Shown: in pieces, positions 11,031 to 64,000 of the stretch
How positions within the stretch are numbered: position 1 is the stretch's first letter
Layout of the letters: the number at the start of each line of letters is the position of its first letter
IMG/VR virus record: IMGVR_UViG_3300006056_000031
Location: 15,911 to 79,910 of that record
Length of the DNA stretch: 64,000 nt
Origin: a virus
Lineage: Duplodnaviria > Heunggongvirae > Uroviricota > Caudoviricetes
Strand: one strand, 5' to 3'
Position numbers and translations under genes: made by a program
Notes under the pieces: generated by a model
Told to the model about the DNA's origin: nothing
Database searches by the model: none
What the model saw: only the letters and a program-made list of their open reading frames with translations

Positions 11031-12122
11031 ATGGAAAGAAAACTTGCAAGTATTAGAAAGATTAGTGATCTTCAACCAATCGAAGGTGCGGACCTTATAG
11101 AATTGGCAATTGTGGATGGATGGAAAGTTGTAGTAGCCAAAGAAGTTGGCCATAAGATTGGAGACTTTGTGATCTATTGCGAGGTTGATTCATTCCTCCC
11201 AATCCGCGAGGAATTTGAATTTCTTAGAAAAAGTTCGTACAGAAAGATAATCGATCAGGAGGGATTCAGACTTAAAACCATAAAATTAAGAGGACAAATT
11301 TCTCAGGGACTTATCCTTCCGCTTTCCATATTGGAAGGTGAAGAAGAGGACGAAAAACTTGGTCATCTAGAAACTCCTGATGGACCAATTTATCAATTAG
11401 GACCATATGAGTGGGCTCTTGTTATAGAGGAAGGTGCAGATGTTACCAACATGCTTGGTATTGTTAAATGGGATCCACCTATGCCTGCATGTCTGTCTGG
11501 TATAGCAAAGGGTAACTTTCCAAGCTGGGGGAGAAAAACTGACCAGGAGAGAGCACAGAATCTTGTTTCAGAGATTGGTTTGGAGCTATCAAATGATTCG
11601 AAATTTGAAATATCTATAAAATTGGATGGTACATCGATGTCAGTAGGAAAGAATGGTAGCGATATAGTAGTTTGTTCAAGAAATTTGATTCTTAATACTG
11701 AGCAGGAAGGAAATACTTTAATTGATGTTGCTAAATCTCTAGGATTGTTGGATAGAATTAGTGAATTTGGTGATATAATGATATCTGGGGAATTGTGTGG
11801 TCCTGGAATACAAGGGAATCGTGAAAAACTTGGTAAACATAAATTTTTTGTATTTGATATATTCGACGTTAGAAGTGGGGAATATATCAGTCCTGAAGAA
11901 AGAATAAAGATTGTAGAATCTTTGGGTTTAGATCATGTTCCAATTATTCATAAATCGGTAAAGCTTAATGAGATTGGATTAAATTCACTTGATGATATAT
12001 TAGCTTATGCAAACGGAGAATCCTTAAATTCGAAGATTAGAGAGGGACTAGTTTTTAAGAAGGTTGATGGATCTTTTAGCTTCAAGGCAATAAGTAACGA
12101 ATTTCTTCTTAAATTTGAGTGA
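11031..12122 (+). CDS. ATP-dependent RNA ligase (Rnl2/Rnl5-like nucleotidyltransferase) with N-terminal Myf/EMAP-like tRNA-binding OB domain
   Basis: Motif I KxDG (SIKLDGTSMSV). FVFDIFDV, ISGELCGPG and the motif-V-like EGLVFKKVDG are ordered as in the covalent nucleotidyltransferase ligases. The N-terminus (IRKISDLQPIEGADLIELAIVDGWKVVVAKEVGHKIGDFVIYCEVDSFLP) matches the tRNA-binding Myf-domain pattern. Confidence 0.7.
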   Translation: MERKLASIRKISDLQPIEGADLIELAIVDGWKVVVAKEVGHKIGDFVIYCEVDSFLPIREEFEFLRKSSYRKIIDQEGFRLKTIKLRGQISQGLILPLSILEGEEEDEKLGHLETPDGPIYQLGPYEWALVIEEGADVTNMLGIVKWDPPMPACLSGIAKGNFPSWGRKTDQERAQNLVSEIGLELSNDSKFEISIKLDGTSMSVGKNGSDIVVCSRNLILNTEQEGNTLIDVAKSLGLLDRISEFGDIMISGELCGPGIQGNREKLGKHKFFVFDIFDVRSGEYISPEERIKIVESLGLDHVPIIHKSVKLNEIGLNSLDDILAYANGESLNSKIREGLVFKKVDGSFSFKAISNEFLLKFE

Positions 12123-12159: not shown

Positions 12160-12966
12160 ATGAATAATGATTTTTATGTTTATGTTTATATTGACCCAAG
12201 AAATAATGAACCATTTTATGTAGGTAAAGGTAAAGGAAGAAGATATAAACATCATCTGAATTCTGCAAAATCTGATCTCCATTACAAGGAATCAAATAGA
12301 ATTAAAATTAATAAAATTAGGAAAATATTAGAGTCCGGAATGGAACCAATTATAGAGATATTTAGCGATCTTAGCGAGAATGATTCATTCATTATGGAGA
12401 TGAATCTGATATCCAAATATGGTAGGATGGATCTAGGAACAGGAACATTGACAAATCTATCCGAAGGTGGTGAAGGGCAATCAGGATGGATTCCTGGTGA
12501 TGACTATCGAAAAAGAATGTCAGATTCGACAAGGGGTGAAAAAAATGGAATGTTTGGAAAGAATCAAAGTAATGAGACCAGGGAAAAAATAAAAAATAAA
12601 GCATTGGGTAGGAAGCTATCCGAATCAACAAGAAAAAAAATGTCAGAGCAAAGAATTGGTGAGATGAATGGATTCTTTGGTAAAAAACACACGAATGAAT
12701 CTTTAAAAATAATATCCATCAATAGGAAGGGTAAATGTAAAGGATCCGATAATAGTAGTTCTAAAAAATTTCTATTTATTTCTCCGGAAGGATCAAATTA
12801 TATTATAAACGGTGGATTTGAAAATTTCTGCAATAATAATCAATTATCGCACGGAAGAATGAAAAGATTTATAAATTCTGGAAAAATACCAGAATGTAAC
12901 AAATCTCATAATATGACAACACAATTAACTATTAACTGCTTTGGGTGGGAAGTCAAAATAATATAA
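12160..12966 (+). CDS. GIY-YIG homing endonuclease with NUMOD3-like repeats
   Basis: N-terminal YVYVYIDPRNNEPFYVGKGKGRRYKHH...E (GIY-YIG). Three G(E/M)xNxxFGKxxxxET/SR DNA-binding repeats, as in I-TevI-type enzymes. Confidence 0.8.
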   Translation: MNNDFYVYVYIDPRNNEPFYVGKGKGRRYKHHLNSAKSDLHYKESNRIKINKIRKILESGMEPIIEIFSDLSENDSFIMEMNLISKYGRMDLGTGTLTNLSEGGEGQSGWIPGDDYRKRMSDSTRGEKNGMFGKNQSNETREKIKNKALGRKLSESTRKKMSEQRIGEMNGFFGKKHTNESLKIISINRKGKCKGSDNSSSKKFLFISPEGSNYIINGGFENFCNNNQLSHGRMKRFINSGKIPECNKSHNMTTQLTINCFGWEVKII

Positions 12967-17270: not shown

Positions 17271-18014
17271 ATGCCAAAATTATATAAAGTTGGAGGCTGC
17301 GTTAGGGATGCTATCCTTGGTATTGATTCCAAGGATATAGACTTCACTTTCGTGCTAGATGATCTAAACCAAACTGTCGAGGAGGGATTCCAAAAAATGG
17401 ATGATTGGATGACTGAAAAAGGATTTGAGATATTTCTAAGAGTCCCAGAGATGTACACCATCCGTGCTAGATTTCATAAAGGAGATCCAAACGAGAAACT
17501 TGTTGCTGATTTTGTGATGGCAAGAAAGGAAATGGGATATAGCGACGATAGCAGAAGACCAGTGTTGAAACTAGGTACCTTGGCCGATGATCTTATTCGT
17601 AGAGATTTTACGATCAATGCAATGGCTGAGGACTCGGAAGGGAATCTAATTGATTTATTTGGTGGACAGGATGATCTGAGAATAGGAATACTAAGAACAC
17701 CTAAGCACCCGGATATAACATTCTACGAGGATCCACTACGATTACTTAGAGCACTTAGATTCACCATAACGAAGGATCTTGTTATGCATGATGACATCTG
17801 GGAAGCTATGAAGAACCCAGAATTACTCAAAAAACTAGAACTCACTGTTAGCGGGGAAAGAATTAGGGAGGAGATTTCTAAGATGATGAAACACGACACA
17901 GTTAGAGCAATCCTGCTAATAAAAGATTGCGATGAACACATGGGATTAGGGTACAAATTATTAAGAGTGCTATTTAAAAACGGTCTTTGGCTAAAACCAA
18001 CATTTGAGCAATGA
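17271..18014 (+). CDS. tRNA nucleotidyltransferase (CCA-adding enzyme) head/neck domain, lacking the HD domain
   Basis: LYKVGGCVRDAILGIDSKDIDF corresponds to the class-II CCA enzyme GGxVRD...D.D motif. RRDFTINAMAED...EDPLRLLRALRF matches the RRD.TINA and EDPLR..R..RF motifs. At 247 aa there is no room for a C-terminal HD domain. Confidence 0.8.
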   Translation: MPKLYKVGGCVRDAILGIDSKDIDFTFVLDDLNQTVEEGFQKMDDWMTEKGFEIFLRVPEMYTIRARFHKGDPNEKLVADFVMARKEMGYSDDSRRPVLKLGTLADDLIRRDFTINAMAEDSEGNLIDLFGGQDDLRIGILRTPKHPDITFYEDPLRLLRALRFTITKDLVMHDDIWEAMKNPELLKKLELTVSGERIREEISKMMKHDTVRAILLIKDCDEHMGLGYKLLRVLFKNGLWLKPTFEQ

Positions 18015-18283
18015 AAGGAAATCTTAAATTAGTAGATGGTGTTTGGATGATGTCATACGACAATCAAGAAATCCCTGTTGATTCGAGCAGCTTCATTAAA
18101 ATAAAATCAATGAATCACGACAACTCGCAGGAGTTTGAATTCGAAATAAGTCACCGCATGAGAGAATCATTCACAGAAATAGCGAATCGATGTATATCAT
18201 ACTGCGAAAGATCTGGCCCATGCGGATGTGACAGGTATTGGAAAAGCGAAGCAAATCACATAAAAACAGCAAAGCTACTATGA
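18011..18283 (+). CDS. hypothetical protein
   Basis: ORF of 90 aa with an ATGA overlap. Confidence 0.4.
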   Translation: MKGNLKLVDGVWMMSYDNQEIPVDSSSFIKIKSMNHDNSQEFEFEISHRMRESFTEIANRCISYCERSGPCGCDRYWKSEANHIKTAKLL

Positions 18284-19080
18284 GCGAGCCAATTAAAATT
18301 GTAACAGCCGGGCTATACGGTAAAAGTTCAAGCGATGATGCATTCAAAAAGATGCTGGAATCATGGAGTCCATTGGATTCATTGGGTGATGGAGAGCCGG
18401 AGGAGTTAACACAGGAGGAAATCAATGAGCGACAAGCCTATATTGAAGACACCAAGAATGGTTACTCTGAAGCTGCTATTCATAAAATTCTTAAAGATCT
18501 AAAAGTTGACGAACCGGTTCTCAACATATACAGATACGGAAGTCGAATCTACGGAACTGCTGATCAGAATTCGGATCACGATTACATTATAGTTACCAAG
18601 GGTGCTATGCTTAAGAGTGGTGCTTTTAAACAGAACGCCATCTCCAGTGAGAATCGTAACATCCAGGGGATTCTTTATTCAAGAAGTGGATTTACTGATG
18701 CTATCAACAACTATGACATCAGTGCTCTAGAATGTTTATCCCTACATCCCAACGATGTTCTTATGAGCACATGGCCATTCAAGGTTCAGAAGTGGGATAA
18801 TAAGGTGATGATCAAGAAGATCATATCTAAGGTTTCTGCATCATGGCACACTGCTGATATGCAGGCAAAGGATGGATTCAGAGATCGTGCTAAGAAAGGA
18901 ATTTTTCATGCACTTAGAATTCTACATTTCGCTTTGCAATTGAAGGTGAATCAAAGAATTGATGATTTCGGTTGTGTTAACTACATCTGGGAGGATTTTA
19001 AATTGATACCTGATGATGAATTTGACACCAGAGACTACATCAAGGAAAGAGATGAACTAATGGAACAATTGAGATCATGA
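18280..19080 (+). CDS. minimal nucleotidyltransferase (pol-beta superfamily) with possible C-terminal HEPN-like helical domain
   Basis: YRYGSRIYGTADQNSDHDYIIV gives the GS-x9-13-D-x-D NTase signature. The C-terminal RDRAKKGIFHALRIL fits an Rx4-6H HEPN-like pattern. Start moved to ATG 18280 (ATGA overlap). Confidence 0.55.
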   Translation: MSEPIKIVTAGLYGKSSSDDAFKKMLESWSPLDSLGDGEPEELTQEEINERQAYIEDTKNGYSEAAIHKILKDLKVDEPVLNIYRYGSRIYGTADQNSDHDYIIVTKGAMLKSGAFKQNAISSENRNIQGILYSRSGFTDAINNYDISALECLSLHPNDVLMSTWPFKVQKWDNKVMIKKIISKVSASWHTADMQAKDGFRDRAKKGIFHALRILHFALQLKVNQRIDDFGCVNYIWEDFKLIPDDEFDTRDYIKERDELMEQLRS

Positions 19081-21019: not shown

Positions 21020-22054
21020 ATGAGATACGATAAAAAATATTTGATTAATTATCTAATAGAAAATTATAGCAAAAAGAGCAAATCTGAAATAATCAATGAA
21101 CTTGGTCTTTCCTGGTCATATTTACAAAGAATAGCATCATTAAATGGTATAAAGAGGGAATTTTCGGAAAATAAAAATGTAGGTAAATATTCGATACTAA
21201 CAAACTATGATGATATAACAAGTTGTTATTGGTTGGGATTTATGCTAGCTGATGGTAACATAAGCAAAAAAAATAATATGATGCTTAATTTAGCAATAAA
21301 GGATAAAGATCATATACTCAAAATAGAAGATCATGTTGGGAAAACTAGCGTTTATTATCAAAATGATAATATAATAAGGGTTGTTTTAAATGACTCCGGA
21401 ACATTTAGAAAAATAGCATCCGATTTTGAATGGAAAACAAACAAAACTAAAAATCCACCAGTCCTACCAGAATCAATGCAGCAAGATTGTATATTTTCGA
21501 TGGTTGTTGGATTTATTGATGGCGATGGATGCATTGACGAAAGACATGGACTCGCCGTTAAATGCGATGGCTCGTGGCAAGACATGCTTAATTATTTTTA
21601 TTTGATATTAACAGGAGATTCTAAAAAATATCAAATTGATAATAATGGATATTCAATATTTCGCATAGGAAACATGATAAAACTAAAGGATATAAAGAAA
21701 AAAATTATTGAGCTTAATATTCCGGCTATGGATAGAAAGTGGGATAAAGTGGATATTAACAGGATATACAAATCGGAGAAAGAATCTATTATTTCAGAGA
21801 TGCTAAATAATGGAAATAATATGAATGCAATATTGGAAAAAACAGGATTTAGTAAAACCTTATATTATTCAGTTGCAAATAAGAAAGGTGTAAATATAAG
21901 AAAAAATAAAATATCCAATGATCAATTCATGTCAATAGTAACAATGTACAACAATGGAATTAATCCGTCAGAGATGTCCAGATCTATTGAATTGAGTATA
22001 TCCACAATATATAGGCAGATTAAAAAATATAAAGCAACTAAAAGAAGTTTATAA
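21020..22054 (+). CDS. LAGLIDADG homing endonuclease (two-motif, monomeric type)
   Basis: Two LAGLIDADG motifs: CYWLGFMLADGNIS and FSMVVGFIDGDGCID. Confidence 0.75.
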   Translation: MRYDKKYLINYLIENYSKKSKSEIINELGLSWSYLQRIASLNGIKREFSENKNVGKYSILTNYDDITSCYWLGFMLADGNISKKNNMMLNLAIKDKDHILKIEDHVGKTSVYYQNDNIIRVVLNDSGTFRKIASDFEWKTNKTKNPPVLPESMQQDCIFSMVVGFIDGDGCIDERHGLAVKCDGSWQDMLNYFYLILTGDSKKYQIDNNGYSIFRIGNMIKLKDIKKKIIELNIPAMDRKWDKVDINRIYKSEKESIISEMLNNGNNMNAILEKTGFSKTLYYSVANKKGVNIRKNKISNDQFMSIVTMYNNGINPSEMSRSIELSISTIYRQIKKYKATKRSL

Positions 22055-25865: not shown

Positions 25866-25900
25866 TTATTCCGGAATAATTTCATATATTTGCAATGTAA
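25866..25900 (+). promoter_or_regulatory. phage promoter (-7 box 25885-25893); upstream element is the perfect palindrome TTATTCCGGAATAA
   Basis: ttattccggaataatttcatatatttgcaatgtaa. Confidence 0.55.
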
Positions 25901-26168: not shown

Positions 26169-26225
26169 TGGGATATAGCTTAGTGGTAGAGCTTTACAGC
26201 GGAGGTTCAATTCCTTCTATCCCGA
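26169..26225 (+). tRNA. tRNA-like element lacking an anticodon arm (about 57 nt; acceptor + D arm + T arm only); possible tRNA pseudogene or anticodon-less tRNA mimic
   Basis: The acceptor stem TGGGATA/TATCCCG, a canonical D arm (GCTTAGTGGTAGAGC) and a T arm (GGAGG-TTCAATT-CCTTC) are contiguous. Only 8 nt lie between the D and T arms. Confidence 0.4.
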
Positions 26226-26424
26226 CAAAGCAGTTTTTATTGTGCATCTCCATCGGACGAGAACATTGTTTTAGATTTAAAAACAAGGTTAATAGGACCG
26301 GGTAGTTTAAAAGTTTTCCTAGCCTTAAGGAAAAGTAAGGGTGGTTTTGCAGATGACAGTTTCCTAACCTAGTGGAAAAGTCGGTATAATAGGGAAATCG
26401 GTCGGCTTTAACCGATTCCCAACA

Positions 26425-26548
26425 GGGGGAATAGACCAACGGTATGGTACATCTCTAACTTACATCATAGATAGAATCTATGACGTCTTCACACAAAGGC
26501 GAAGTTTAGCTGATTCAAGTGTCACAGGTTCGATTCCTGTTTCCCCCA
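26425..26548 (+). tRNA. tRNA-like gene, oversized (about 124 nt) between D arm and T arm
   Basis: Perfect acceptor pairing GGGGGAA/TTCCCCC. T arm ACAGG-TTCGATT-CCTGT at 26524-26540. A 3-bp D stem of the type-II kind. The interior contains a 7-bp/3-nt-loop hairpin (26466-26482), but no canonical 5+7+5 anticodon arm could be placed by eye. Confidence 0.4.
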
Positions 26549-26735
26549 CTAGCCACGTCACTGTAAGCTGCAGTGATAACTGGACACGAAATAAGGTGGT
26601 TCCGCGGATCACTAACGAAATCGTCTGAGGTAGAGTCCGAGTCCAGGGTTAAAACATAAAGAGTCTACTACATAACGAGGCGCCAAATTAATCTCGACAT
26701 GTACTGTCTGGCAGGTCAGACTAGGCTCTTTAAAC

Positions 26736-26812
26736 GATTGGAAATAGCTTGATTGTGGCGCGACGCCTATTGGGAGCAGTGGTAAAAATGGGTTCGAATC
26801 CTGTTCCAATCA
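26736..26812 (+). tRNA. tRNA gene (77 nt; isotype undetermined)
   Basis: Acceptor GATTGGA/TCCAATC. T arm ATGGG-TTCGAAT-CCTGT at 26788-26804. Total length is canonical. The D and anticodon arms are not cleanly assignable by eye. Confidence 0.55.
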
Positions 26813-26896
26813 CGAAACACGTAAAACGCAAACGCACGGGCCCTAGATGCATAAGGTGAGGCGCACCCCGTATACTGGATGACCTCTGTTTTTAAC

Positions 26897-27003
26897 GACC
26901 AGAATGCAGGGATGGAACCCTGCACATTAGAAAGTTCCTATAAAGCAATGGTTGATGTCGTGGAGCTTTGACATTAACTGCGGGTTCGATTCCTGCACTG
27001 GTC
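26897..27003 (+). tRNA. tRNA-like gene, oversized (about 107 nt)
   Basis: Acceptor GACCAGA/ACTGGTC (6 of 7 bp). T arm GCGGG-TTCGATT-CCTGC at 26979-26995. A 7-bp interior hairpin at 26903-26922. Confidence 0.35.
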
Positions 27004-27016
27004 ACAAATGCAAATG

Positions 27017-27083
27017 GGGAGATATGCTTAAAGTCACGTGGAGGTAAAGCAATAAGATTGGAGGTTCGAGTCCTTCTCTCTCC
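27017..27083 (+). tRNA. tRNA-like gene (short, about 67 nt)
   Basis: T arm GGAGG-TTCGAGT-CCTTC at 27059-27075. 3' acceptor TCTCTCC pairs with GGAGATA at 27017-27023 (6 of 7 bp). Confidence 0.35.
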
Positions 27084-27298
27084 ACAAAAAGAAAATGTTC
27101 TTCGTGGTGAATGAACGGTATTTTATAGGATGGACGCATTGGTAATAGTTGGGTAAGGAGAGAACTGCAGTGGGCTGCTGCACTACACCTCAAGAAAAAT
27201 CGCAAGATAAAACTGCCAATTTAGATAGAAAGAACTAAGCCATCCAATAAAATGCCAAAGAAACAATTTTAAAATAATTGTTATTGTTATTTTTTTAA

Positions 27299-33167: not shown

Positions 33168-33216
33168 GATTGTGGTGATATATAGAAATAAAGATTCATA
33201 TGTATTTCTATGTATA
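33168..33216 (+). promoter_or_regulatory. imperfect inverted repeat spanning the start codon of the GIY-YIG gene (possible translational occlusion hairpin)
   Basis: TATATAGAAATA-aagattcatATG-TATTTCTATGTATATA. The ATG (33200) lies inside the predicted stem-loop. Confidence 0.35.
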
Positions 33217-34135
33217 TAAAATAACTAACACTGAACCTCTTGATGAAAGAAAATTTTATATTGGTGTAAGAACATCAAAGGTTGAACCATTATTGGATAT
33301 AAAATATTGGGGTTCATCAAAATCACTGAGCAGGGAGATAAGGGAGAGAGGAATTTCAATATTTAGGAAAGAAATACTTTCAATTTTTAACGACAGATCA
33401 GCAGCGGTGGAGGAAGAAATAAGACTCCATATGCTCTATAATGTTGATAAAAATTTGGAATATTATAATTTATCAATAAGTGGATCAATAGAATATGATG
33501 CTTCTGATAGGGTTAGCGTATTCGATAGCGAAGGTAAAACCCTAAGTGTTTCCACCAAAGATCCGAAATATCTATCGGGAAATTACAAATCCATAACCCA
33601 TGGATTTGTAACGTGTAGAAATGATAAGGGTGAAAATGTTAGAGTTAAGAAGGATGACTTCTACTCCAATGAAAAGTATACGAGTCCAAACGTAGGAATG
33701 GTTCCAGCAAAAGATTTTAACGGAAATACTTTCCTTGCAAATAAAAATGATCCAAGGTTACTAAATGGTGAGATAATGAGTGTTCATAAAGGTAAAGTTA
33801 TGTGCACAGACCAATGTGGAAAAAATAGATTAGTTACGTCTGATGAATTTAAAAACGACCCAAATCTGTTTGGCGTATGTAAAAATAAAATCTCGGGAAA
33901 TAAAAACGGGAGAGCTAAAATTATAGATATATTTAATAATAGTGGTGATCTTATTTATAGATGCGATGGAAATTTTAAAAAAGTTTGTATGGAAAATAAA
34001 TTTCCATTCGTGCCATTAAAAAAGTCCCATATAAATGGGGGTGTACCTATATACCAATCAAAAAAAGCAAAAACTGATTCAATTAAAAATGGTACGCAAT
34101 CCTATATAGGATGGTACGCAAAAGAAATTAAATAA
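33200..34135 (+). CDS. GIY-YIG homing endonuclease
   Basis: N-terminal FYVYKITNTEPLDERKFYIGVRT...E (GIY-x10-YIG). Long C-terminal DNA-binding region. Confidence 0.75.
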   Translation: MYFYVYKITNTEPLDERKFYIGVRTSKVEPLLDIKYWGSSKSLSREIRERGISIFRKEILSIFNDRSAAVEEEIRLHMLYNVDKNLEYYNLSISGSIEYDASDRVSVFDSEGKTLSVSTKDPKYLSGNYKSITHGFVTCRNDKGENVRVKKDDFYSNEKYTSPNVGMVPAKDFNGNTFLANKNDPRLLNGEIMSVHKGKVMCTDQCGKNRLVTSDEFKNDPNLFGVCKNKISGNKNGRAKIIDIFNNSGDLIYRCDGNFKKVCMENKFPFVPLKKSHINGGVPIYQSKKAKTDSIKNGTQSYIGWYAKEIK

Positions 34136-52997: not shown

Positions 52998-53112
52998 TTT
53001 CTGTAATTTATGTGTTATTAATTTTATCAAAAAAATCAATAATGTTTCGGTTTCATTACCATTATTGGAGCTCTTTCTTGTGGACAGATATATAGATAAA
53101 AATAAATATAAT

Positions 53113-54036
53113 ATGCTAAGCGAAGATAAAATATCTGCATATATTAGGGAAAATATAGAATTCACATCCAAAAAAACTATGTGCGAATTTTTAAGTATTC
53201 ACAGGAGAACCCTTGATAAAATAATAAAAAAGAATAACATACCTGACGATAGAATCTATAGGTACTGTCCATCCTGCAACAATAAGATCTATCACGTAAA
53301 CAAAACTGAGAGAGAAAGACGCGAGAGCAGAAATTGTATAAAATGCAGCAGACCTGATATCAGGGGAGAAAAAAATCCATTCTTCGGTAAACATCACACA
53401 GACGGGATGAAAAAATTCTATCATGATATCCACAAGGGTAAAAGATATTCACCAGAGACTGAATTTAAGAAGGGGTCAGCGGGAAATCCAGTAAGCAATC
53501 ATGATTCATGGGTCAAAAAATACGGGAAGGATATAGCTGATATAAAAAACGAGGCTTTTAAACTAAAAACATCAATAAATAATTCAGGGGAGGGGAATCC
53601 TATGTATGGAAAGCCAGCACCAATTGGATCTGGTAATGGTTGGTCTGGATGGTATAAGGGATGGTATTTTAGAAGCCTATTGGAGCTATCCTATATGATC
53701 TTTGTTATAGAAAGATTTAATATTAAATGGGAGACAGGAGAGTCTAAGAAAAATAAAATTGAATATCAGTATGATGGTGTCATTAAAAATTATTTTCCTG
53801 ACTTTATACTAAATGAAAAATATGTAATTGAATGTAAACCTAAAAAATTGCAGAATAGTGAAATCAATAAAATAAAAATGGAATATGCTAAATACTATTG
53901 CGAATCCAGAGGACTCGTTCTGAAGATAAGAGACTGCAGAAAAATTAAAAAGCAAGAACTTATCGAATTATACAAATCAGGAAATGTTAGATTTATAGAA
54001 AAATATGAATTAAAAATAAATGAAATAATTCCTTAA
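53113..54036 (+). CDS. putative homing endonuclease (Cys-cluster + NUMOD3-like repeats + PD-(D/E)XK nuclease)
   Basis: CPSCNN...C.KCS zinc-ribbon-like. GEKNPFFGKHHTDG and GEGNPMYGKPAP are NUMOD3-like repeats. C-terminal YFPDFILNEKYVIECKPKK fits PD-(D/E)xK. Start chosen at the internal ATG 53113. Confidence 0.5.
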   Translation: MLSEDKISAYIRENIEFTSKKTMCEFLSIHRRTLDKIIKKNNIPDDRIYRYCPSCNNKIYHVNKTERERRESRNCIKCSRPDIRGEKNPFFGKHHTDGMKKFYHDIHKGKRYSPETEFKKGSAGNPVSNHDSWVKKYGKDIADIKNEAFKLKTSINNSGEGNPMYGKPAPIGSGNGWSGWYKGWYFRSLLELSYMIFVIERFNIKWETGESKKNKIEYQYDGVIKNYFPDFILNEKYVIECKPKKLQNSEINKIKMEYAKYYCESRGLVLKIRDCRKIKKQELIELYKSGNVRFIEKYELKINEIIP

Positions 54037-60518: not shown

Positions 60519-61340
60519 ATGAGCATCTTTAAAAAAGGTAAATTAAGTAAGCCAGAATTCATCTCGAAGATGATTGGCACAGTCATCTCGCTTTTGGCAT
60601 TTGGCTTCATGTGGACGGTAGAGTTCCCAGGTGACACGGTAAAGGACAACGGATCCTTAAGTTTTTCGGCAATGCACACAACATTCAACATTGCTTTCTT
60701 GGTGGGCTTATTTGTCTATATCGTTATTCTAATGAGAAAGTCATTGGACCAGAATTTGGAATGGGATTTTAGAGAATCTAATGACGGCGATAAAAATCCA
60801 TTCGGAAGCGTAGCAGGTTTATTGGTTCTATTGCTTTTAGTTATTGGGCTGAGCCGATTCTATAAAGATTCAAAAGTCATCTATAATCAAACAGTTCTAT
60901 ATCAAAATGATTATGCTCAAGTGAGCCAAGAGAAAGAAACATACTACGACAACATGTGGAAATCTTATACACTTAAACATAATGTGCTAATCGAAAATAA
61001 ACAAACTTTTATCGAGATAACTAAGATGATCATGGATGGAAGACGTGATGGTGAAAAACTTACGTGGAAATGGTTACAAGAAAATCAACCAATACCATAT
61101 AGTGAATTTAGCAGCTTCTATGCTGACCTATCACAATTCGTAGAAACACAAAGAGCTGGATATTTAGCTTTAGAAGTGAAGTCACAGAACATCGCAAAAG
61201 CTAATAATATATTGCTACAGACTTTCCCGAACAATGTATATAATAGGGTTTTGAAAAGATCTCAGATTGATTACAAACCTGGATTTAGTTCAACAAAAAC
61301 TAAGAATGTGTTCCAAACAGGGATAGAAGATATTGAATAA
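60519..61340 (+). CDS. membrane-anchored protein, paralog family B
   Basis: Two N-terminal TM segments. The C-terminal 150 aa are collinear with the 54114 ORF (YDNMWKSYT ... IMDGRRDGEKLTWKWLQENQPIPYSEFSSFYADLS ... QRAGY ... FP ... YKPGFSSTKTKNVFQTG). Confidence 0.5.
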   Translation: MSIFKKGKLSKPEFISKMIGTVISLLAFGFMWTVEFPGDTVKDNGSLSFSAMHTTFNIAFLVGLFVYIVILMRKSLDQNLEWDFRESNDGDKNPFGSVAGLLVLLLLVIGLSRFYKDSKVIYNQTVLYQNDYAQVSQEKETYYDNMWKSYTLKHNVLIENKQTFIEITKMIMDGRRDGEKLTWKWLQENQPIPYSEFSSFYADLSQFVETQRAGYLALEVKSQNIAKANNILLQTFPNNVYNRVLKRSQIDYKPGFSSTKTKNVFQTGIEDIE

Positions 61341-61344
61341 AAAT

Positions 61345-61372
61345 AAAACCAGAGTTTAAGCTCTGGTTTAAA
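61345..61372 (+). terminator. rho-independent terminator
   Basis: AAACCAGAG-tttaag-CTCTGGTTTAAAT. Weak T tail. Confidence 0.5.
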
Positions 61373-61403
61373 TGGTCCTTCAACTTAATACGATTCGGCA
61401 ATC

Positions 61404-61802
61404 GTGTCAGCCTCTAAAACTGATGTAACGTGTTCGATGCACGGTGGGATCACAAAAAACATAACGATGAAAGAATATTCATGGAAAACAGCTCTAGGAG
61501 AAACTAAAAAATTCTCGGAAATAGATCATCAGCACCTATCGAATATACTTTGGTTCAGAGAGATTTTAACAGGAGCTAATTTTTGTAACTGTGAGGTTCA
61601 AAGGCTTTTAAATTCTGAACTAAAAAGAAGATTCAAAGGGGAGAGATTGCCATGGAAGCCATTACCAATTCCAAATGAGATAGATTGGATAAGAAAGGCG
61701 GCTTACATAAACAGTAAAGGTGAAATAATAGGAACAATGAAAACACCATCACATTACGGTAGAGTTATTGGATCTATTGCTCATATAGAAAAACTCAATT
61801 AG
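61404..61802 (+). CDS. hypothetical protein
   Basis: ORF of 132 aa. Confidence 0.45.
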   Translation: MSASKTDVTCSMHGGITKNITMKEYSWKTALGETKKFSEIDHQHLSNILWFREILTGANFCNCEVQRLLNSELKRRFKGERLPWKPLPIPNEIDWIRKAAYINSKGEIIGTMKTPSHYGRVIGSIAHIEKLN

Positions 61803-61881
61803 CGGAGAGTAGGGGAAACCCAAAAATAGCTAAGCTGTGTAAAGCGACAGAACTGATAATCTGTTAGAAGCTAGGTTGGAT

Positions 61882-62030
61882 GGCGGAAAGCTTATAATGG
61901 AAGAAATTCTATTACAGCAAGGAAGACGCTATATTAGAGAAAGGACGCACTGGATTTGGAAACCCAGTTAGCGACAGTGGAAGAATCAACGCTCTAATTA
62001 CCATTGTGGGTTCGAATCCCACTTCAGCCA
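61882..62030 (+). tRNA. tRNA-like gene, strongly oversized (about 149 nt), tentative
   Basis: T arm GTGGG-TTCGAAT-CCCAC at 62006-62022. 3' acceptor TTCAGCC pairs with GGCGGAA at 61882-61888 (6 of 7 bp). The interior contains an anticodon-like hairpin near 61847-61866 outside this span, so the boundaries are uncertain. Confidence 0.3.
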
Positions 62031-62050
62031 CTAATAAAAATATAAAAATA

Positions 62051-62557
62051 ATGAAAAAAGCATTGATTGCATTAGCTTTAATATTAGCGATAAATTCAAT
62101 ATATTCGCAAGATAATAAAGTAATTATTGAAAATTGCACCAACAAGTCTCAACTTTATGGACCAAGTGGTGTAATCTGTTCAAATATTGATAGAACAAAG
62201 TGGTTCACATTAAAACCAAACTACTTATTAGATGGTGATAGATTGTCTTGCCATGGCCTTATAGTAATTAAATCAAACATTGGTGGTCCGAGTAAAAAAT
62301 GCCAATTGGTATTTTCATTTAGCGATGGAAGTAAATTAAGACTGAAACCTGAGGAGGAATCAAAAACTGGGAACATTTTTTATTTTAAATTAACCGAATT
62401 AGAATTCATAATTTTAAAAAGTAAAAAAATTAATCACGCTAGATACATTAACGGAATTGATAATATCTCGTTCCAATATAAAATGGGTGAGGAAGAAAAA
62501 AATTACTATGTAAATTTGTTTACTAATTATCATATTCAAAAAATGTACTGTGAATAA
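62051..62557 (+). CDS. hypothetical secreted protein
   Basis: Start moved to MKKALIALALILAINSIYSQD (signal peptide). The longer ORF from 62006 would overlap the tRNA-like T arm. Confidence 0.45.
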   Translation: MKKALIALALILAINSIYSQDNKVIIENCTNKSQLYGPSGVICSNIDRTKWFTLKPNYLLDGDRLSCHGLIVIKSNIGGPSKKCQLVFSFSDGSKLRLKPEEESKTGNIFYFKLTELEFIILKSKKINHARYINGIDNISFQYKMGEEEKNYYVNLFTNYHIQKMYCE

Positions 62558-62559
62558 AT

Positions 62560-62662
62560 GGGTAGTTGGCGAATTGGCTAACGCAAAGGGTTAGTTTATA
62601 TCGGTAACAAATCAAGGTATAAATGAGTCCCTCATACGCAGGTTCGAATCCTGTACTACCCA
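62560..62662 (+). tRNA. type-II (Leu/Ser-like) tRNA-like gene with enlarged anticodon region (103 nt)
   Basis: Acceptor GGGTAGT/ACTACCC. D arm TGGCGAATTGGCTAACGCA is nearly identical in layout to bacterial tRNA-Leu. Variable-arm hairpin ATGAG-TCC-CTCAT. T arm GCAGG-TTCGAAT-CCTGT. The anticodon region is about 18 nt longer than canonical and no 5/7/5 arm fits. Confidence 0.5.
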
Positions 62663-62906
62663 CAAATCAGCGATGTTAACTACTCTGTGGTATCTACGGA
62701 GTGCTAGGAGTAAACCTAGAAACTTGCTTAGGTAAGTTAAGGATTAAATGAGTTACAGTTCGGATTTGAACCTTAAAAAAGCTAATGCTTTAATGACATG
62801 TAGATTCAGAATAGCTTATACTATTTAGGTACCTGAACCATTCAAAGAAGTCTTAGCAGATGATGATATTTTTTAGCCAAGGCGGAAATTTTTTGATTCA
62901 CTATTT

Positions 62907-62999
62907 GGTCAGATTGGACATAAGGTCGGTTCGAGTCCGATGGAAGGTCATGGATGTCGGGTAGCTCCCTGTAGGAAGGTTCGATTCCTTCCCTGACTG
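62907..62999 (+). tRNA. tRNA-like gene (about 93 nt) with duplicated T-arm-like hairpins
   Basis: T arm GGAAGG-TTCGATT-CCTTCC at 62974-62992. 3' CTGACT pairs with GGTCAG at 62907-62912. A second T-arm-like hairpin GTCGG-TTCGAGT-CCGAT sits at 62926-62942. Confidence 0.35.
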
Positions 63000-63015
63000 C
63001 GGCGCTTTTTCGTAC

Positions 63016-63052
63016 TTTAGTTTAGATATATAAAATAAACTAAAGTATAGAA
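63016..63052 (+). promoter_or_regulatory. 10-bp inverted repeat immediately upstream of the GIY-YIG gene start (possible regulatory hairpin)
   Basis: CTTTAGTTTA-gatatataaaa-TAAACTAAAG, ending 4 nt before ATG 63053. Confidence 0.35.
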
Positions 63053-63727
63053 ATGGCAAGAAAAGAAAAACTGTTTCATTATATCTATAAGATAACAAAC
63101 ACAAAGAATGGTAAATATTATATAGGAATGCATTCTACCGATAATGTGGAGGATGGATATTTCGGAAGCGGAAAAAGAATAAGAAATTCGATTAGAAAGC
63201 ACGGATTACTAGTACACACAAAAGAAATTATAGAATATTTCGAAGATAGGGAATCATTAAGAAACTGTGAAATTGGATTGGTAAATGAGGATTTATTAAA
63301 CGATCCAATGTGTATGAATCTACAGCCCGGAGGTGGTGGTGGATTTATAAATGAGGAACATAGGAAAAAATGCGCATTAGCAGCGAAGCTGGCAAATACC
63401 AAACACTTAATAGAATTTTGGAAAGACCCAATAAATAGGAAGAAAAGGACCGATGATATCAAAAAAGCGATGGGAAAACTAAGTATGGAATATAAAAAAA
63501 ATTACGCATCGCACGGATTTAAAGACAAAACCCACACGGAAGAAGCTAAAGAACTAATAGGTGTAAAAAATTCAACAAAACAAAAAGGTGAAGGAAATTC
63601 CCAATGGGGTTCTTTTTGGGTAAATCATCCTGAAATGGGTAATAAAAAAATTAGAGGTGAAGAAAATCTGGATGTATATATTAATTCGGGATGGAATAGA
63701 GGCAGAAATATGAAATTTAAAAAGTGA
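63053..63727 (+). CDS. GIY-YIG homing endonuclease
   Basis: N-terminal FHYIYKITNTKNGKYYIGMHST....YFGSGK (GIY-YIG). Downstream H...N and Lys-rich DNA-binding tail. Confidence 0.75.
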   Translation: MARKEKLFHYIYKITNTKNGKYYIGMHSTDNVEDGYFGSGKRIRNSIRKHGLLVHTKEIIEYFEDRESLRNCEIGLVNEDLLNDPMCMNLQPGGGGGFINEEHRKKCALAAKLANTKHLIEFWKDPINRKKRTDDIKKAMGKLSMEYKKNYASHGFKDKTHTEEAKELIGVKNSTKQKGEGNSQWGSFWVNHPEMGNKKIRGEENLDVYINSGWNRGRNMKFKK

Positions 63728-63776
63728 AACAAAACAAAAATTGAATATATAATAATAAATTAAAAACAACACAATG

Positions 63777-64000
63777 ACTTAGATTAACAAATTTCAAGAA
63801 ACAAAACTGGTAGTAATTACCAGATCAGATATCCACCCAGGGTATCAATTACCCCAGGCTTGTCATAGTCTCGCAGATTTTGCACATGAACATCCTACAA
63901 AGTTCAAAGAATGGAAAGAGACATCAAATTCTATAATTTGTCTCTCCGCAAAATCAGAATCGCATTTAATTAAACTTTACGAAAAATTCAGACACGTCAC
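63777..64000 (+). CDS. PTH2-like peptidyl-tRNA hydrolase paralog (3'-partial; no ATG start found)
   Basis: The open frame to the window end encodes ..KLVVITRSDIHPGYQLPQACHSLADFAHEHP...SNSIICLSAKSESHLIKLYEKF, resembling the PTH2 N-terminal half (KmVlVVRtDL.MgkGKiaAQcsHAa...kVVLkv.sEeeL). There is no in-frame ATG between the upstream TGA (63774-63776) and the conserved block. Confidence 0.35.

Follow-up and report, generated by a model that had tools for sequence, protein, structure and literature searches.

The window analysed here is a 64 kb stretch from the genome, roughly 430 kb in size, of a jumbo phage that encodes a Gp23-type capsid protein and is distantly T4-like (all coordinates below refer to the + strand). 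Between 61.8 and 63.0 kb the window contains three tRNA-like units, U1, U2 and U3, with the gene of a signal-peptide protein lying between U1 and U2. This arrangement had been claimed in a preliminary description, and its elements are indeed found at or near the positions assigned to them, far above chance. The T-arm motif GGTTCRANTCC has 10 occurrences in the window where 0.22 are expected (a ∼45-fold excess), a count reached in 0 of 100 shuffles, and 9 of the 10 matches are on the + strand within two clusters, the present one and cluster 1 near 26 kb. Standard ARAGORN at default settings predicts 0 tRNAs and 0 tmRNAs across the window. The gathering score of the Rfam tRNA model RF00005 is passed by U2 and by two units of cluster 1, with large insertions or deletions, while U3 gives no Rfam tRNA match. 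An Rfam scan of positions 61000–64000 at E values up to 10 otherwise returned only sub-threshold chance matches, none of them a ribozyme, riboswitch, group I intron, tmRNA or Y RNA, and by blastn against a phage collection the RNA region matched only the E0 element described below and short T-arm stretches. No promoter box was found between 59209 and 63050.

All units have a 7-bp acceptor stem and a 5-bp T stem with a TTCRANT-type T-loop, and the parts kept in each of them are the acceptor, the T arm, usually the D arm, a core of U8/A14/G18G19/U48, and A73. An anticodon arm of standard geometry (stem of 5 bp, loop of 7 nt with U33 and purine 37, constant distance from the tRNA body) is not conserved among orthologues: the corresponding region is a branched cargo on a 7-bp stem in U1, a 38-nt loop in U2 and a 6-nt loop in U3, a fourth unit, U0, being the only one that approaches a canonical anticodon arm. 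The related genomes used for comparison carry the labels L001, L002, L003, L188, L194, L195, L196 and L201, and the covariation reported for each unit is drawn from 3–5 close genomes.

U0, the E0 leader and U1

U0 (61374..61452) is an atypical tRNA-like unit of 79 nt situated just upstream of the U1–U3 region. Its D hairpin has 5 bp, and its anticodon-like arm ends in the loop (C/U)U-CUA-AA; the T arm and acceptor were located and its MFE fold was computed. Alignment with L001–L003 evidences covariation in the D hairpin and in the anticodon-like stem, together with conservation of the loop, and U0 shows that odd tRNAs, which might still be able to decode, are also made by this lineage. The mechanical start of ORF 61404 falls within U0; the true ATG of this ORF is probably at 61467. 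TAG recoding, considered as an account of U0, left no signal within the window.

Abutting the 5′ end of U1 is E0 (61825..61873), a three-way-junction leader RNA of about 49–51 nt in which 4 of the 5 pairs of helix P3 show compensatory changes. E0 is present in 36 viral contigs and has an 86% match in Flavobacterium phage elemoA, located 3 nt upstream of the tRNA-Ala of that phage; in the contigs L042 and L045 it is placed upstream of tmRNA-like 5′ ends.

U1 (61874..62030) is a tRNA-shaped RNA of 157 nt. Its end agrees with the unit of ∼149 nt first proposed, whereas the start, formerly set at 61882, is moved to 61874 by a covarying 7-bp acceptor (GGTTGGA/TTCAGCC). A Leu-type D stem follows, with a GAAA-tetraloop hairpin inserted into the D loop; the middle is made up of a 7-bp stem, S1, that bears a branched cargo with hairpin S2, and the 3′ part consists of a canonical T arm and A73, CCA not being encoded. 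The T arm gives sub-threshold Rfam matches to tRNA (18.3 bits) and to Plastid-psbl-rps4 (17.9 bits). Over three genomes the 35 pairs of U1 are 99% paired and 8 of them are altered on both sides, these changes falling in the acceptor, the D-loop hairpin, S1 and S2. None of 500 shuffles matches the 8 double changes and slid controls yield 0–1, so that the comparison with related phages, which had been proposed as a check, favours function over decay. The U1-specific cargo pattern and the core of E1 (see below) do not occur beyond the closest relatives, which limits the depth of covariation.

The embedded gene, U2, E1 and U3

The gene at 62051..62557 encodes a signal-peptide protein of 168 aa, starting 20 nt past U1 and ending 2 nt before U2. 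It is a real gene, as already supposed, since L001 has an orthologue with about 78% identity and the same signal peptide and cysteines. Pfam, NCBIfam and PHROG gave no match to the protein.

U2 (62560..62662) is a tRNA-shaped RNA of 103 nt that scores 48.1 bits with the Rfam tRNA model. It has a perfect 7-bp acceptor, a class-II D arm, a canonical T arm and A73, and its MFE fold is cloverleaf-like (z = −3.55). The position of the anticodon loop is taken by a 38-nt cargo hairpin enclosed by a stem of 4–5 bp, the Rfam model placing 36 nt there where 5 are expected. From the earlier view of U2 as a Leu/Ser-like type-II tRNA of 103 nt, the acceptor, the class-II D arm and the T arm are retained but the separate long variable arm is not; in the same manner, the anticodon region is oversized, but by about 31 nt and not 18 nt, as the 4–5 bp stem encloses 38 nt. 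The orthologous slot upstream of E1 is occupied by five different units in the window, L001, L002, L188 and L194, and the ORF and U2 are jointly absent from L002, being present or absent as a block.

Between U2 and U3 lies E1 (62663..62906), a conserved non-coding spacer RNA of 244 nt with multiple hairpins, which is kept in the window and in L001, L002, L188 and L194. Its RNAalifold structure shows almost no covariation because the sequences are too similar, and it has no Rfam match. U3 (62907..62999) is a cloverleaf-like RNA of 93 nt whose consensus fold comprises an acceptor of 6–7 bp and three arms: one with a T-loop-like hairpin inside it, a short one with a loop of 6 nt, and a genuine T arm. 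The two tandem T-arm-like hairpins noted previously therefore exist as T-loop-like hairpins, but the T arm that belongs to the acceptor is the second one alone. Compensatory changes are found in the acceptor (GGTCAG/CTGACT vs AGCCAG/CTGGCT) and also in the T stem.

Cluster 1 and the enzyme genes

Cluster 1 (26169..27084) consists of five tRNA-shaped units (26169–26225, 26425–26548, 26736–26812, 26897–27004 and 27016–27084) separated by non-coding spacers, an array without ORFs that has the promoter box TATATTTG upstream, at 25885. Two of these units match the Rfam tRNA model: the one at 26169–26225 (C1a) is 57 nt long and has no anticodon arm, and that at 26425–26548 has 67 nt where 17 are expected. 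The cluster is kept in L195, L196 and L201 with compensatory acceptor changes, and the 57-nt unit is likewise conserved with covariation.

The array at 61.8–63.0 kb is adjoined by a SegB-like GIY-YIG homing endonuclease gene (63053..63727), which has blastn similarity to T4-type segB, matches the homing endonuclease family phrog_314 with 122 bits and gives a weak NCBIfam match to group I intron endonucleases. Two further genes encode enzymes that act on RNA. A short class-II tRNA nucleotidyltransferase of CCA-adding type (17271..18014, 247 aa), which has no body and tail domains, is identified by PF01743 (74 bits), by the PDB tRNA nucleotidyltransferase cca1 (E = 6.5e-23) and by phrog_24229 (202 bits), and scores about 109 bits with the NCBIfam CCA models, under their equivalog cut-offs. 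An ATP-dependent RNA ligase of DraRnl type (11031..12122; PF09414 and PF21189) exceeds the cut-off of TIGR02306 (153.6 against 151.15).

A phage-wide family of tRNA-shaped units

The same architecture is found in at least 120 viral contigs, with 95 unique units of 71–163 nt that have constant ends and a hypervariable middle of 20–110 nt. The ends form a near-invariant chassis of Leu type (acceptor, D arm, T arm, U48 and A73, with CCA not encoded), and the middle, hereafter the cargo, replaces the anticodon/variable domain. U48 is present in 85 of 91 units and A73 in 81 of 91, next to cargo positions that are variable. The notion of oversized tRNAs is thus right as to the extra sequence and wrong as to a lengthened anticodon region, the whole domain being swapped for unrelated, lineage-specific cargo. 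Compared with shuffled sequence the cargo is weakly more structured (mean z = −0.9), and covariation is seen inside cargo subfamilies, for example u40–u45. No shared cargo motif was found; in 16 loci with long cargos the Rfam matches are limited to the tRNA model, and the longest antisense matches of every unit to the + strand of the window (64 kb) equal those of shuffled controls.

Among 185,579 cellular species, a 25-mer of the chassis is confined to 6 short MAG contigs, and these bear the same phage-type units; the chassis is therefore phage-specific, and its derivation as a copy of a host tRNA-Leu was discarded. The units are co-oriented with genes in operons, an upstream stop lying within 10 nt in 14 of 81 cases and a downstream ATG at 12–30 nt in 20 of 76. 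In other phages units are often embedded in arrays of canonical tRNAs, and unit-ORF-unit arrays are seen in other contigs. When 1,221 ORFs flanking the units at 120 loci were clustered, no family that might be a dedicated protein partner was shared by more than 7 loci. We found no description of this tRNA-chassis RNA family in the literature. Annotation of phage genomes overlooks such genes, as ARAGORN recognises 11 of 91 family units and none of those in the window. Few or no predicted tRNAs are reported for some of the largest Flavobacterium jumbophages (PMC13573597), and missed units may partly explain these low counts.

Nature of the units

We favour, with somewhat more confidence than doubt, the interpretation that the region belongs to a jointly transcribed array of non-decoding tRNA-shaped RNAs in which cargo replaces the anticodon and variable arms. 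In our best reading these RNAs would rely on the tRNA chassis to be excised, to receive CCA and to stay stable. The array would be transcribed as one long RNA from the promoter of an upstream gene, host RNase P would cut at the 5′ end of every unit and a 3′ endonuclease past A73, and these cuts would set free not only the units but also the leader E0, the spacer RNA E1 and a short mRNA of the secreted-protein gene. The 3′ ends could then be completed by the CCA-adding-type enzyme of the phage or by that of the host, and the tRNA fold would confer stability. The cargo would act as effector, a role that would fall to the chassis in units without cargo. Units and unit-plus-gene cassettes may be swapped between phages by recombination at the near-identical chassis halves, a process that the neighbouring SegB-like homing endonuclease might assist. 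As the family is abundant, phage-specific and structurally selected, it probably has a role during infection.

The extra sequence that recurs in the anticodon region had been taken as a sign of function and not of decay, and this is supported by the compensatory changes in U1, U3 and cluster 1 and by the spread over at least 120 contigs. That the units are decaying pseudogenes, remnants of a former tRNA cluster, is in fact extremely improbable: standard ARAGORN calls no unit and the anticodon regions appear disrupted, as would be expected, but helices are upheld by compensatory changes in U1 (the 8 pairs in three genomes), U3, U0, E0 and cluster 1, tertiary-core nucleotides are conserved beside hypervariable cargo, and the identical design recurs throughout the family. 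It is also very unlikely that the units are true decoding tRNAs with short introns or expansions, from which a phage endonuclease and the RNA ligase would restore normal tRNAs. Besides the presence of that ligase, the CUA anticodon loop of U0 looks proper, and the intron mode of ARAGORN models U2, U3 and one unit of cluster 1 with an intron of 11–31 nt. However, the anticodons that this mode yields for one and the same Leu-type chassis stand for more than 15 amino acids, and the modelled intron sites scatter over positions 32–40, which is incompatible with fixed identity elements. Furthermore, the anticodon stem-loop is unconserved both across the family and at the same slot, where five different units are found upstream of E1, and we thus do not regard the units as intron-bearing decoders. 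In U1 there is an insertion in the D loop and the candidate loop, carried by the branched stem of 7 bp, is remote from the body of the tRNA, and the 57-nt unit is conserved and covaries without any anticodon arm. Introns of group I type need a core of roughly 200 nt or more, against inserts of 8–110 nt, and gave no Intron_gpI match at E values up to 10; neither a splicing endonuclease nor RtcB is among the 46 window proteins scanned.

Two other explanations assign the value to the chassis. The units could be RNase P/Z punctuation of polycistronic transcripts, combined with recombination or homing modules that move gene cassettes, the cargo being mostly filler. This we consider unlikely, although stop-to-unit and unit-to-ATG spacing is tight (with U1 20 nt ahead of the ORF and U2 2 nt past it), the ORF and U2 occur or are missing as a block, the SegB-like endonuclease adjoins and unit-ORF-unit arrays recur in other contigs. 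Covariation of the cargo helices of U1 and of subfamily u40–u45 shows that the cargo is selected; moreover, arrays of cluster-1 type offer no ORFs to punctuate and three quarters of the units are not tightly packed on ORFs. A slightly fainter prospect is that the units are tRNA mimics, whose chassis binds host tRNA-binding proteins and might be leucylated without an anticodon, or act as a decoy or sponge for tRNA-targeting nucleases or enzymes. Conserved elements are the Leu-type D arm GCGGAAUUGGUAGACGC, A15/U48 and A73, bacterial LeuRS makes no use of the anticodon, and the acceptor end would come from the phage CCA-adding-type enzyme; that the 57-nt unit without cargo is conserved implies a value of the chassis on its own. 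Against mimicry, the chassis is not copied from any sequenced host tRNA-Leu, U1–U3 and cluster 1 vary in their acceptor and T stems, some units have no normal D arm, and anticodon nucleases require an anticodon loop.

A wider proposal, rather doubtful as a whole but conceivable, is that the array of non-decoding RNAs belongs to a modular RNA-display system, in which a phage-specific tRNA-Leu-like chassis presents fast-evolving effector cargos exchanged by recombination of chassis halves, T4 RNAs C and D included. Such a system would hijack the tRNA maturation of the host, possibly also LeuRS or EF-Tu, and its cargos would, for instance, inhibit proteins of host defence or RNA metabolism in the manner of aptamers; newly arisen cargos would pass between unrelated phages, driven by homing endonucleases of Seg type, and T4 RNAs C and D would be its long-unexplained local representatives. 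If the cargo domains are effectors, they represent a new reservoir of functional RNA folds.

Comparison with known systems

The nearest precedent for the units of the window are the stable RNAs C and D of T4 (species 1 and 2 RNAs), which are likewise non-decoding small RNAs in a phage tRNA array with an adjoining GIY-YIG endonuclease of SegB type. In T4 rnaC, which is 139 nt long, the T arm (CCGGGTTCGAATCCCGG) is canonical, a stem resembling an acceptor (ACGGAACG/CGTTTCGT) is followed by A-CAA, and there is no anticodon arm; a non-decoding character, a T arm with an acceptor-like stem, an array of stable RNAs and an adjacent Seg-type endonuclease are thus common to both. T4 rnaC differs in its 5′ extension and in having no class-II D arm, and the pattern of a chassis with hypervariable cargo, as well as the family-wide spread, is undescribed for the T4 RNAs. 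No homology to rnaC or rnaD was detected by blastn against the phage collection, which contains T4, and T4-type phages matched the window only in the GIY-YIG gene. The purpose of T4 RNAs C and D is still unexplained (PMC3014915, PMC9697503), and the present family provides a broad comparative handle on it.

The units resemble tmRNA in that acceptor stem and T arm are kept and the anticodon arm is swapped for other RNA, and tRNA-like processing would be common to both. Phage tmRNAs are found in distant relatives, and the Rfam tmRNA models have no match in the window. Unlike tmRNA, the units lack a reading frame for a tag and a series of pseudoknots. They carry U-A or G-C at position 3:70 in place of the alanine identity pair G3-U70, retain a D stem, and measure 57–163 nt against about 350 nt. 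A bacterial Y RNA/YrlA module was also considered and rejected: the unit ends form an acceptor stem and not a Ro-binding stem, and there is no Rfam match.

The tRNA-miRNA-encoded RNAs of gammaherpesvirus MHV68, in which the tRNA shape recruits host tRNA enzymes that free linked functional RNAs, are, together with other viral tRNA-like elements, likewise viral RNAs that borrow the tRNA shape. MHV68 is a eukaryotic virus, its cargo hairpins are placed downstream of, not inside, the tRNA-like unit, and the sequences are unrelated. In engineered tRNA scaffolds a foreign RNA is placed at the position of the anticodon arm, excised by tRNA-processing enzymes and shielded by the fold. The design logic of the units is the same, with cargo at that very position, but the scaffold is man-made whereas the units form a natural phage-specific family, in which the cargo takes the place of the variable arm as well and some members add D-loop insertions; if the cargo domains are effectors, the family is a natural precedent for the engineered device.

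tRNA-like units of the window

Standard ARAGORN calls no tRNA in the 64-kb window. The GGTTCRANTCC T-arm motif nevertheless occurs 10 times in the window versus 0.22 expected, a count reached in 0 of 100 shuffles, and nine of the ten occurrences lie on the + strand within two clusters. Three window sites score above gathering with the Rfam tRNA model: 62560–62662 (48.1 bits; unit U2), with an anticodon loop of 36 nt versus 5 in the model, 26169–26225 (43.6 bits), which has no anticodon arm, and 26425–26548 (31.4 bits), with 67 nt where the model has 17. We have set the unit boundaries by matching each T arm to a complementary 7-mer upstream, delimiting U0 (61374–61452, 79 nt), U1 (61874–62030, 157 nt), U2 (103 nt) and U3 (62907–62999, 93 nt) in cluster 2, and five units of 57–124 nt each in cluster 1 (26169–27084). 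The discriminator is A in all window units except U3 (G), and is followed by CAA, CTA or CGA, so that no window unit encodes CCA. A unit of 282 nt in the compared viral contig L002 (8124–8405), far larger than the others, combines a canonical T arm and A-CAA with an acceptor of 7 perfect base pairs (GATCAGA/TCTGATC), and might contain a very large variable insert (cargo) or a small intron.

Structural selection and the question of decoding

The preliminary description had argued against random decay of these units, and covariation, analyzed for each window unit in 3–5 close genomes, bears this out: the units are under selection, pairing being held by compensatory changes in related genomes. 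In the three-genome alignment of U1 the 35 proposed pairs are 99% paired, and both sides have changed in 8 of them. These 8 are distributed among the acceptor, stem S1, hairpin S2 and a D-loop insertion that forms a GAAA-capped hairpin; this pairing is matched by 0 of 500 shuffles, with slid controls at 0–1. U3, which folds as a cloverleaf-like four-way junction, keeps its acceptor pairing (GGTCAG/CTGACT versus AGCCAG/CTGGCT). The cluster-1 units are likewise kept in relatives, and the 57-nt unit without anticodon arm retains its body while its acceptor goes from GGGATA/TATCCC to GGTACG/CGTGCC. Decaying tRNAs are thus excluded by the covarying and conserved structures of U1, U3 and cluster 1. 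A second alternative, intron-bearing tRNAs, draws on the ARAGORN intron mode, in which tRNA-plus-intron models can be forced on the units; across the wider family these models place on one identical chassis (the retained acceptor, D arm and T arm) anticodons that correspond to over 15 amino acids, with splice sites scattered over positions 32–40, and are therefore an artefact. An Rfam scan of 61000–64000 gave no group I intron signal.

U0 apart, the window units are not decoding RNAs. None of the others has the 5-bp stem and 7-nt loop of an anticodon arm, and the slot directly upstream of the spacer RNA E1 differs in content among all five related genomes compared, with units of 103, 104, 157, 131 and 82 nt, E1 and U3 being conserved despite the swap. 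U0 is atypical: its acceptor is separated from a 5-bp D hairpin by 9 nt, not 2, and its covarying arm carries a conserved loop, U33-CUA-A37, as in an amber suppressor. No TAG recoding is visible within the 64-kb window, so any U0 targets would be located elsewhere in the ~430-kb genome. The GTG at which ORF 61404–61802 mechanically begins lies within U0; this ORF probably starts at ATG 61467 instead.

Accompanying RNAs and the embedded gene

Directly 5′ of U1 lies E0 (61825–61873), a three-way junction of ~49 nt also found at L024 1501–1551 and in L025–L060. Near-identical copies are present in 36 viral contigs, which range from 4-kb fragments to 434 kb, and in the cultured Flavobacterium phage elemoA. 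The copies frequently follow a TAnnTTTG promoter box directly, and what adjoins them downstream is always a further RNA: a tRNA or tRNA-like unit, a tmRNA-like 5′ end or one of another kind. Four of the 5 pairs of the inner helix show compensatory changes, and E0 has no Rfam match. E0 may be a common leader or processing element of phage stable RNAs. In ~14 contigs (L026, L028, L031–L033, L036–L038, L040, L043, L044, L048, L056, L060) a different, recurring RNA takes the place of the tRNA-like unit after E0; it starts AGG(Y)TAAACATTGA...CCTTTGTAA and contains ...TTTACATAAAGATAC.... In L042 and L045 a small hairpin follows E0, then GGGGCTAACAGGTTTTGACAGG..., resembling a phage tmRNA at its 5′ end. 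The distant relatives L011 and L021 have tmRNA genes by both ARAGORN and Rfam.

E1 (62663–62906), between U2 and U3, is 244 nt long, non-coding and without Rfam match, and is so highly conserved in five related genomes that variation is too small for a covariation test; it forms several hairpins, one with a UUCG cap in L002. The cluster-1 spacers (26226–26424, 26549–26735, 26813–26896) are without ORFs and lie at 26–28 kb, where GC is 40% versus ~35% elsewhere; like E1, they may be further structured RNAs freed by processing.

The signal-peptide gene noted earlier between U1 and U2 (62051–62557) is real; its L001 orthologue (~78% identity) keeps the signal peptide and cysteines. Pfam, NCBIfam and PHROG contain no family that matches the protein. 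Its ATG lies 20 nt past the end of U1 and U2 begins 2 nt past its stop; in L002 the ORF and U2 are missing together, as a block.

Genome context

The window carries small + strand genes in series (GC ~35%), among them those for a T4 Gp23-type capsid protein and a DraRnl-type RNA ligase; IMG/VR contigs of 430 and 434 kb are most closely related to it. At 17271–18014 it encodes a class-II tRNA nucleotidyltransferase of 247 aa that matches CCA-adding enzymes best and belongs to the short phage family phrog_24229; this predicted enzyme has head and neck without body or tail domains, and a few hundred bases downstream ORF 18238–19080 has a weak nucleotidyltransferase-fold match. Bacteroidota-type TATATTTG boxes flank cluster 1 on the + strand, at 25885 upstream and 27314 downstream. 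There is none between 59209 and 63050, so that cluster 2 must, on this prediction, be co-transcribed with the protein genes upstream. The promoters, phage elemoA, and Flavobacterium and Chitinophagaceae MAG bins suggest a Bacteroidota host.

Five homing-endonuclease-like ORFs in 64 kb represent an unusually high density: 12160–12966 (GIY-YIG with NUMOD3), 21020–22054 (weak LAGLIDADG match), 33200–34135 (SegE-type GIY-YIG), 53065–54036 (NUMOD3 plus a TnsA-like domain) and 63053–63727 (SegB-like GIY-YIG), which adjoins the RNA array. Directly upstream of the start codon of the latter, an 11-bp inverted repeat with a 9-nt AT-rich loop (63017–63047; ACTTTAGTTTA / TAAACTAAAGT) recalls RNA structures that, according to PMC3014915, restrict how far the seg and mob endonuclease genes of T4 are translated.

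A wider phage family

The L001 version of U1 begins AGTCAGG-TG-GCGGAA, and a pattern search with the 21-nt AGTCAGGTGGCRGAATKGGTA, anchored on this one acceptor sequence, matched at least 120 viral contigs. Among the matches listed, we have extracted 95 unique units of 71–163 nt with a constant 5′ end (AGTCAGGTGGCGGAATTGGTAGACGC), a near-constant 3′ end outside the search pattern (ACAGGTTCGAATCCTGTCCTGACTA) and a middle of 20–110 nt hypervariable in both sequence and length. U48 is present in 85 of 91 and A73 in 81 of 91 of these listed units, neighbouring cargo positions varying freely; U8, A14 and G18G19 also fit a tRNA core but sit within the search pattern, their constancy not being independent evidence. 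The cargos of the listed matches are mildly structured overall (mean z = −0.9), show internal covariation within subfamilies and have no common motif; in the sixteen long-cargo loci scanned with Rfam, no cargo matches a family. Also among the matches listed, units are oriented as their neighbouring genes, about a quarter being tightly packed (a stop codon ≤10 nt upstream in 14/81, an ATG 12–30 nt downstream in 20/76), and no neighbour protein family recurs (maximum 7/120 loci). In several contigs units lie within canonical tRNA arrays. In a search of the genomes of 185,579 cellular species, a chassis 25-mer was found only in 6 short MAG contigs, all 6 carrying a phage-type unit. The family is thus large and phage-specific, and we have found no description of such a chassis-plus-variable-cargo family in the literature.

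Proposed role and closest known systems

Since the chassis keeps the requirements of RNase P, 3′ processing, CCA addition and the tertiary fold, we read the units as non-decoding tRNA-chassis RNAs. The chassis would serve for excision from polycistronic transcripts, for 3′ CCA completion, with the phage supplying its own predicted enzyme, and for stability; excision would also free E0, E1 and, for the embedded gene, a minimal mRNA. The part acting as effector would be the cargo, and in cargo-less units the chassis itself; no target of either was found within the 64-kb window. Cassettes may be exchanged by homologous recombination at the chassis: close relatives differ block by block, and a SegB-like GIY-YIG gene is adjacent, both of which fit this reading. 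T4 SegB is described in PMC3014915 as promoting inheritance of the T4 tRNA region by such exchange.

With tmRNA the window units have in common the replacement of the anticodon arm, but they are without its tag frame, pseudoknots and G3-U70 pair. RNAs C and D of T4, whose roles are still unknown (PMC3014915, PMC9697503), lie in the tRNA cluster beside segB; in rnaC, which has no anticodon arm, the T arm is canonical and A-CAA follows an acceptor-like stem. Although no sequence similarity to the window units was detected, these T4 RNAs share with them both design and neighbourhood.
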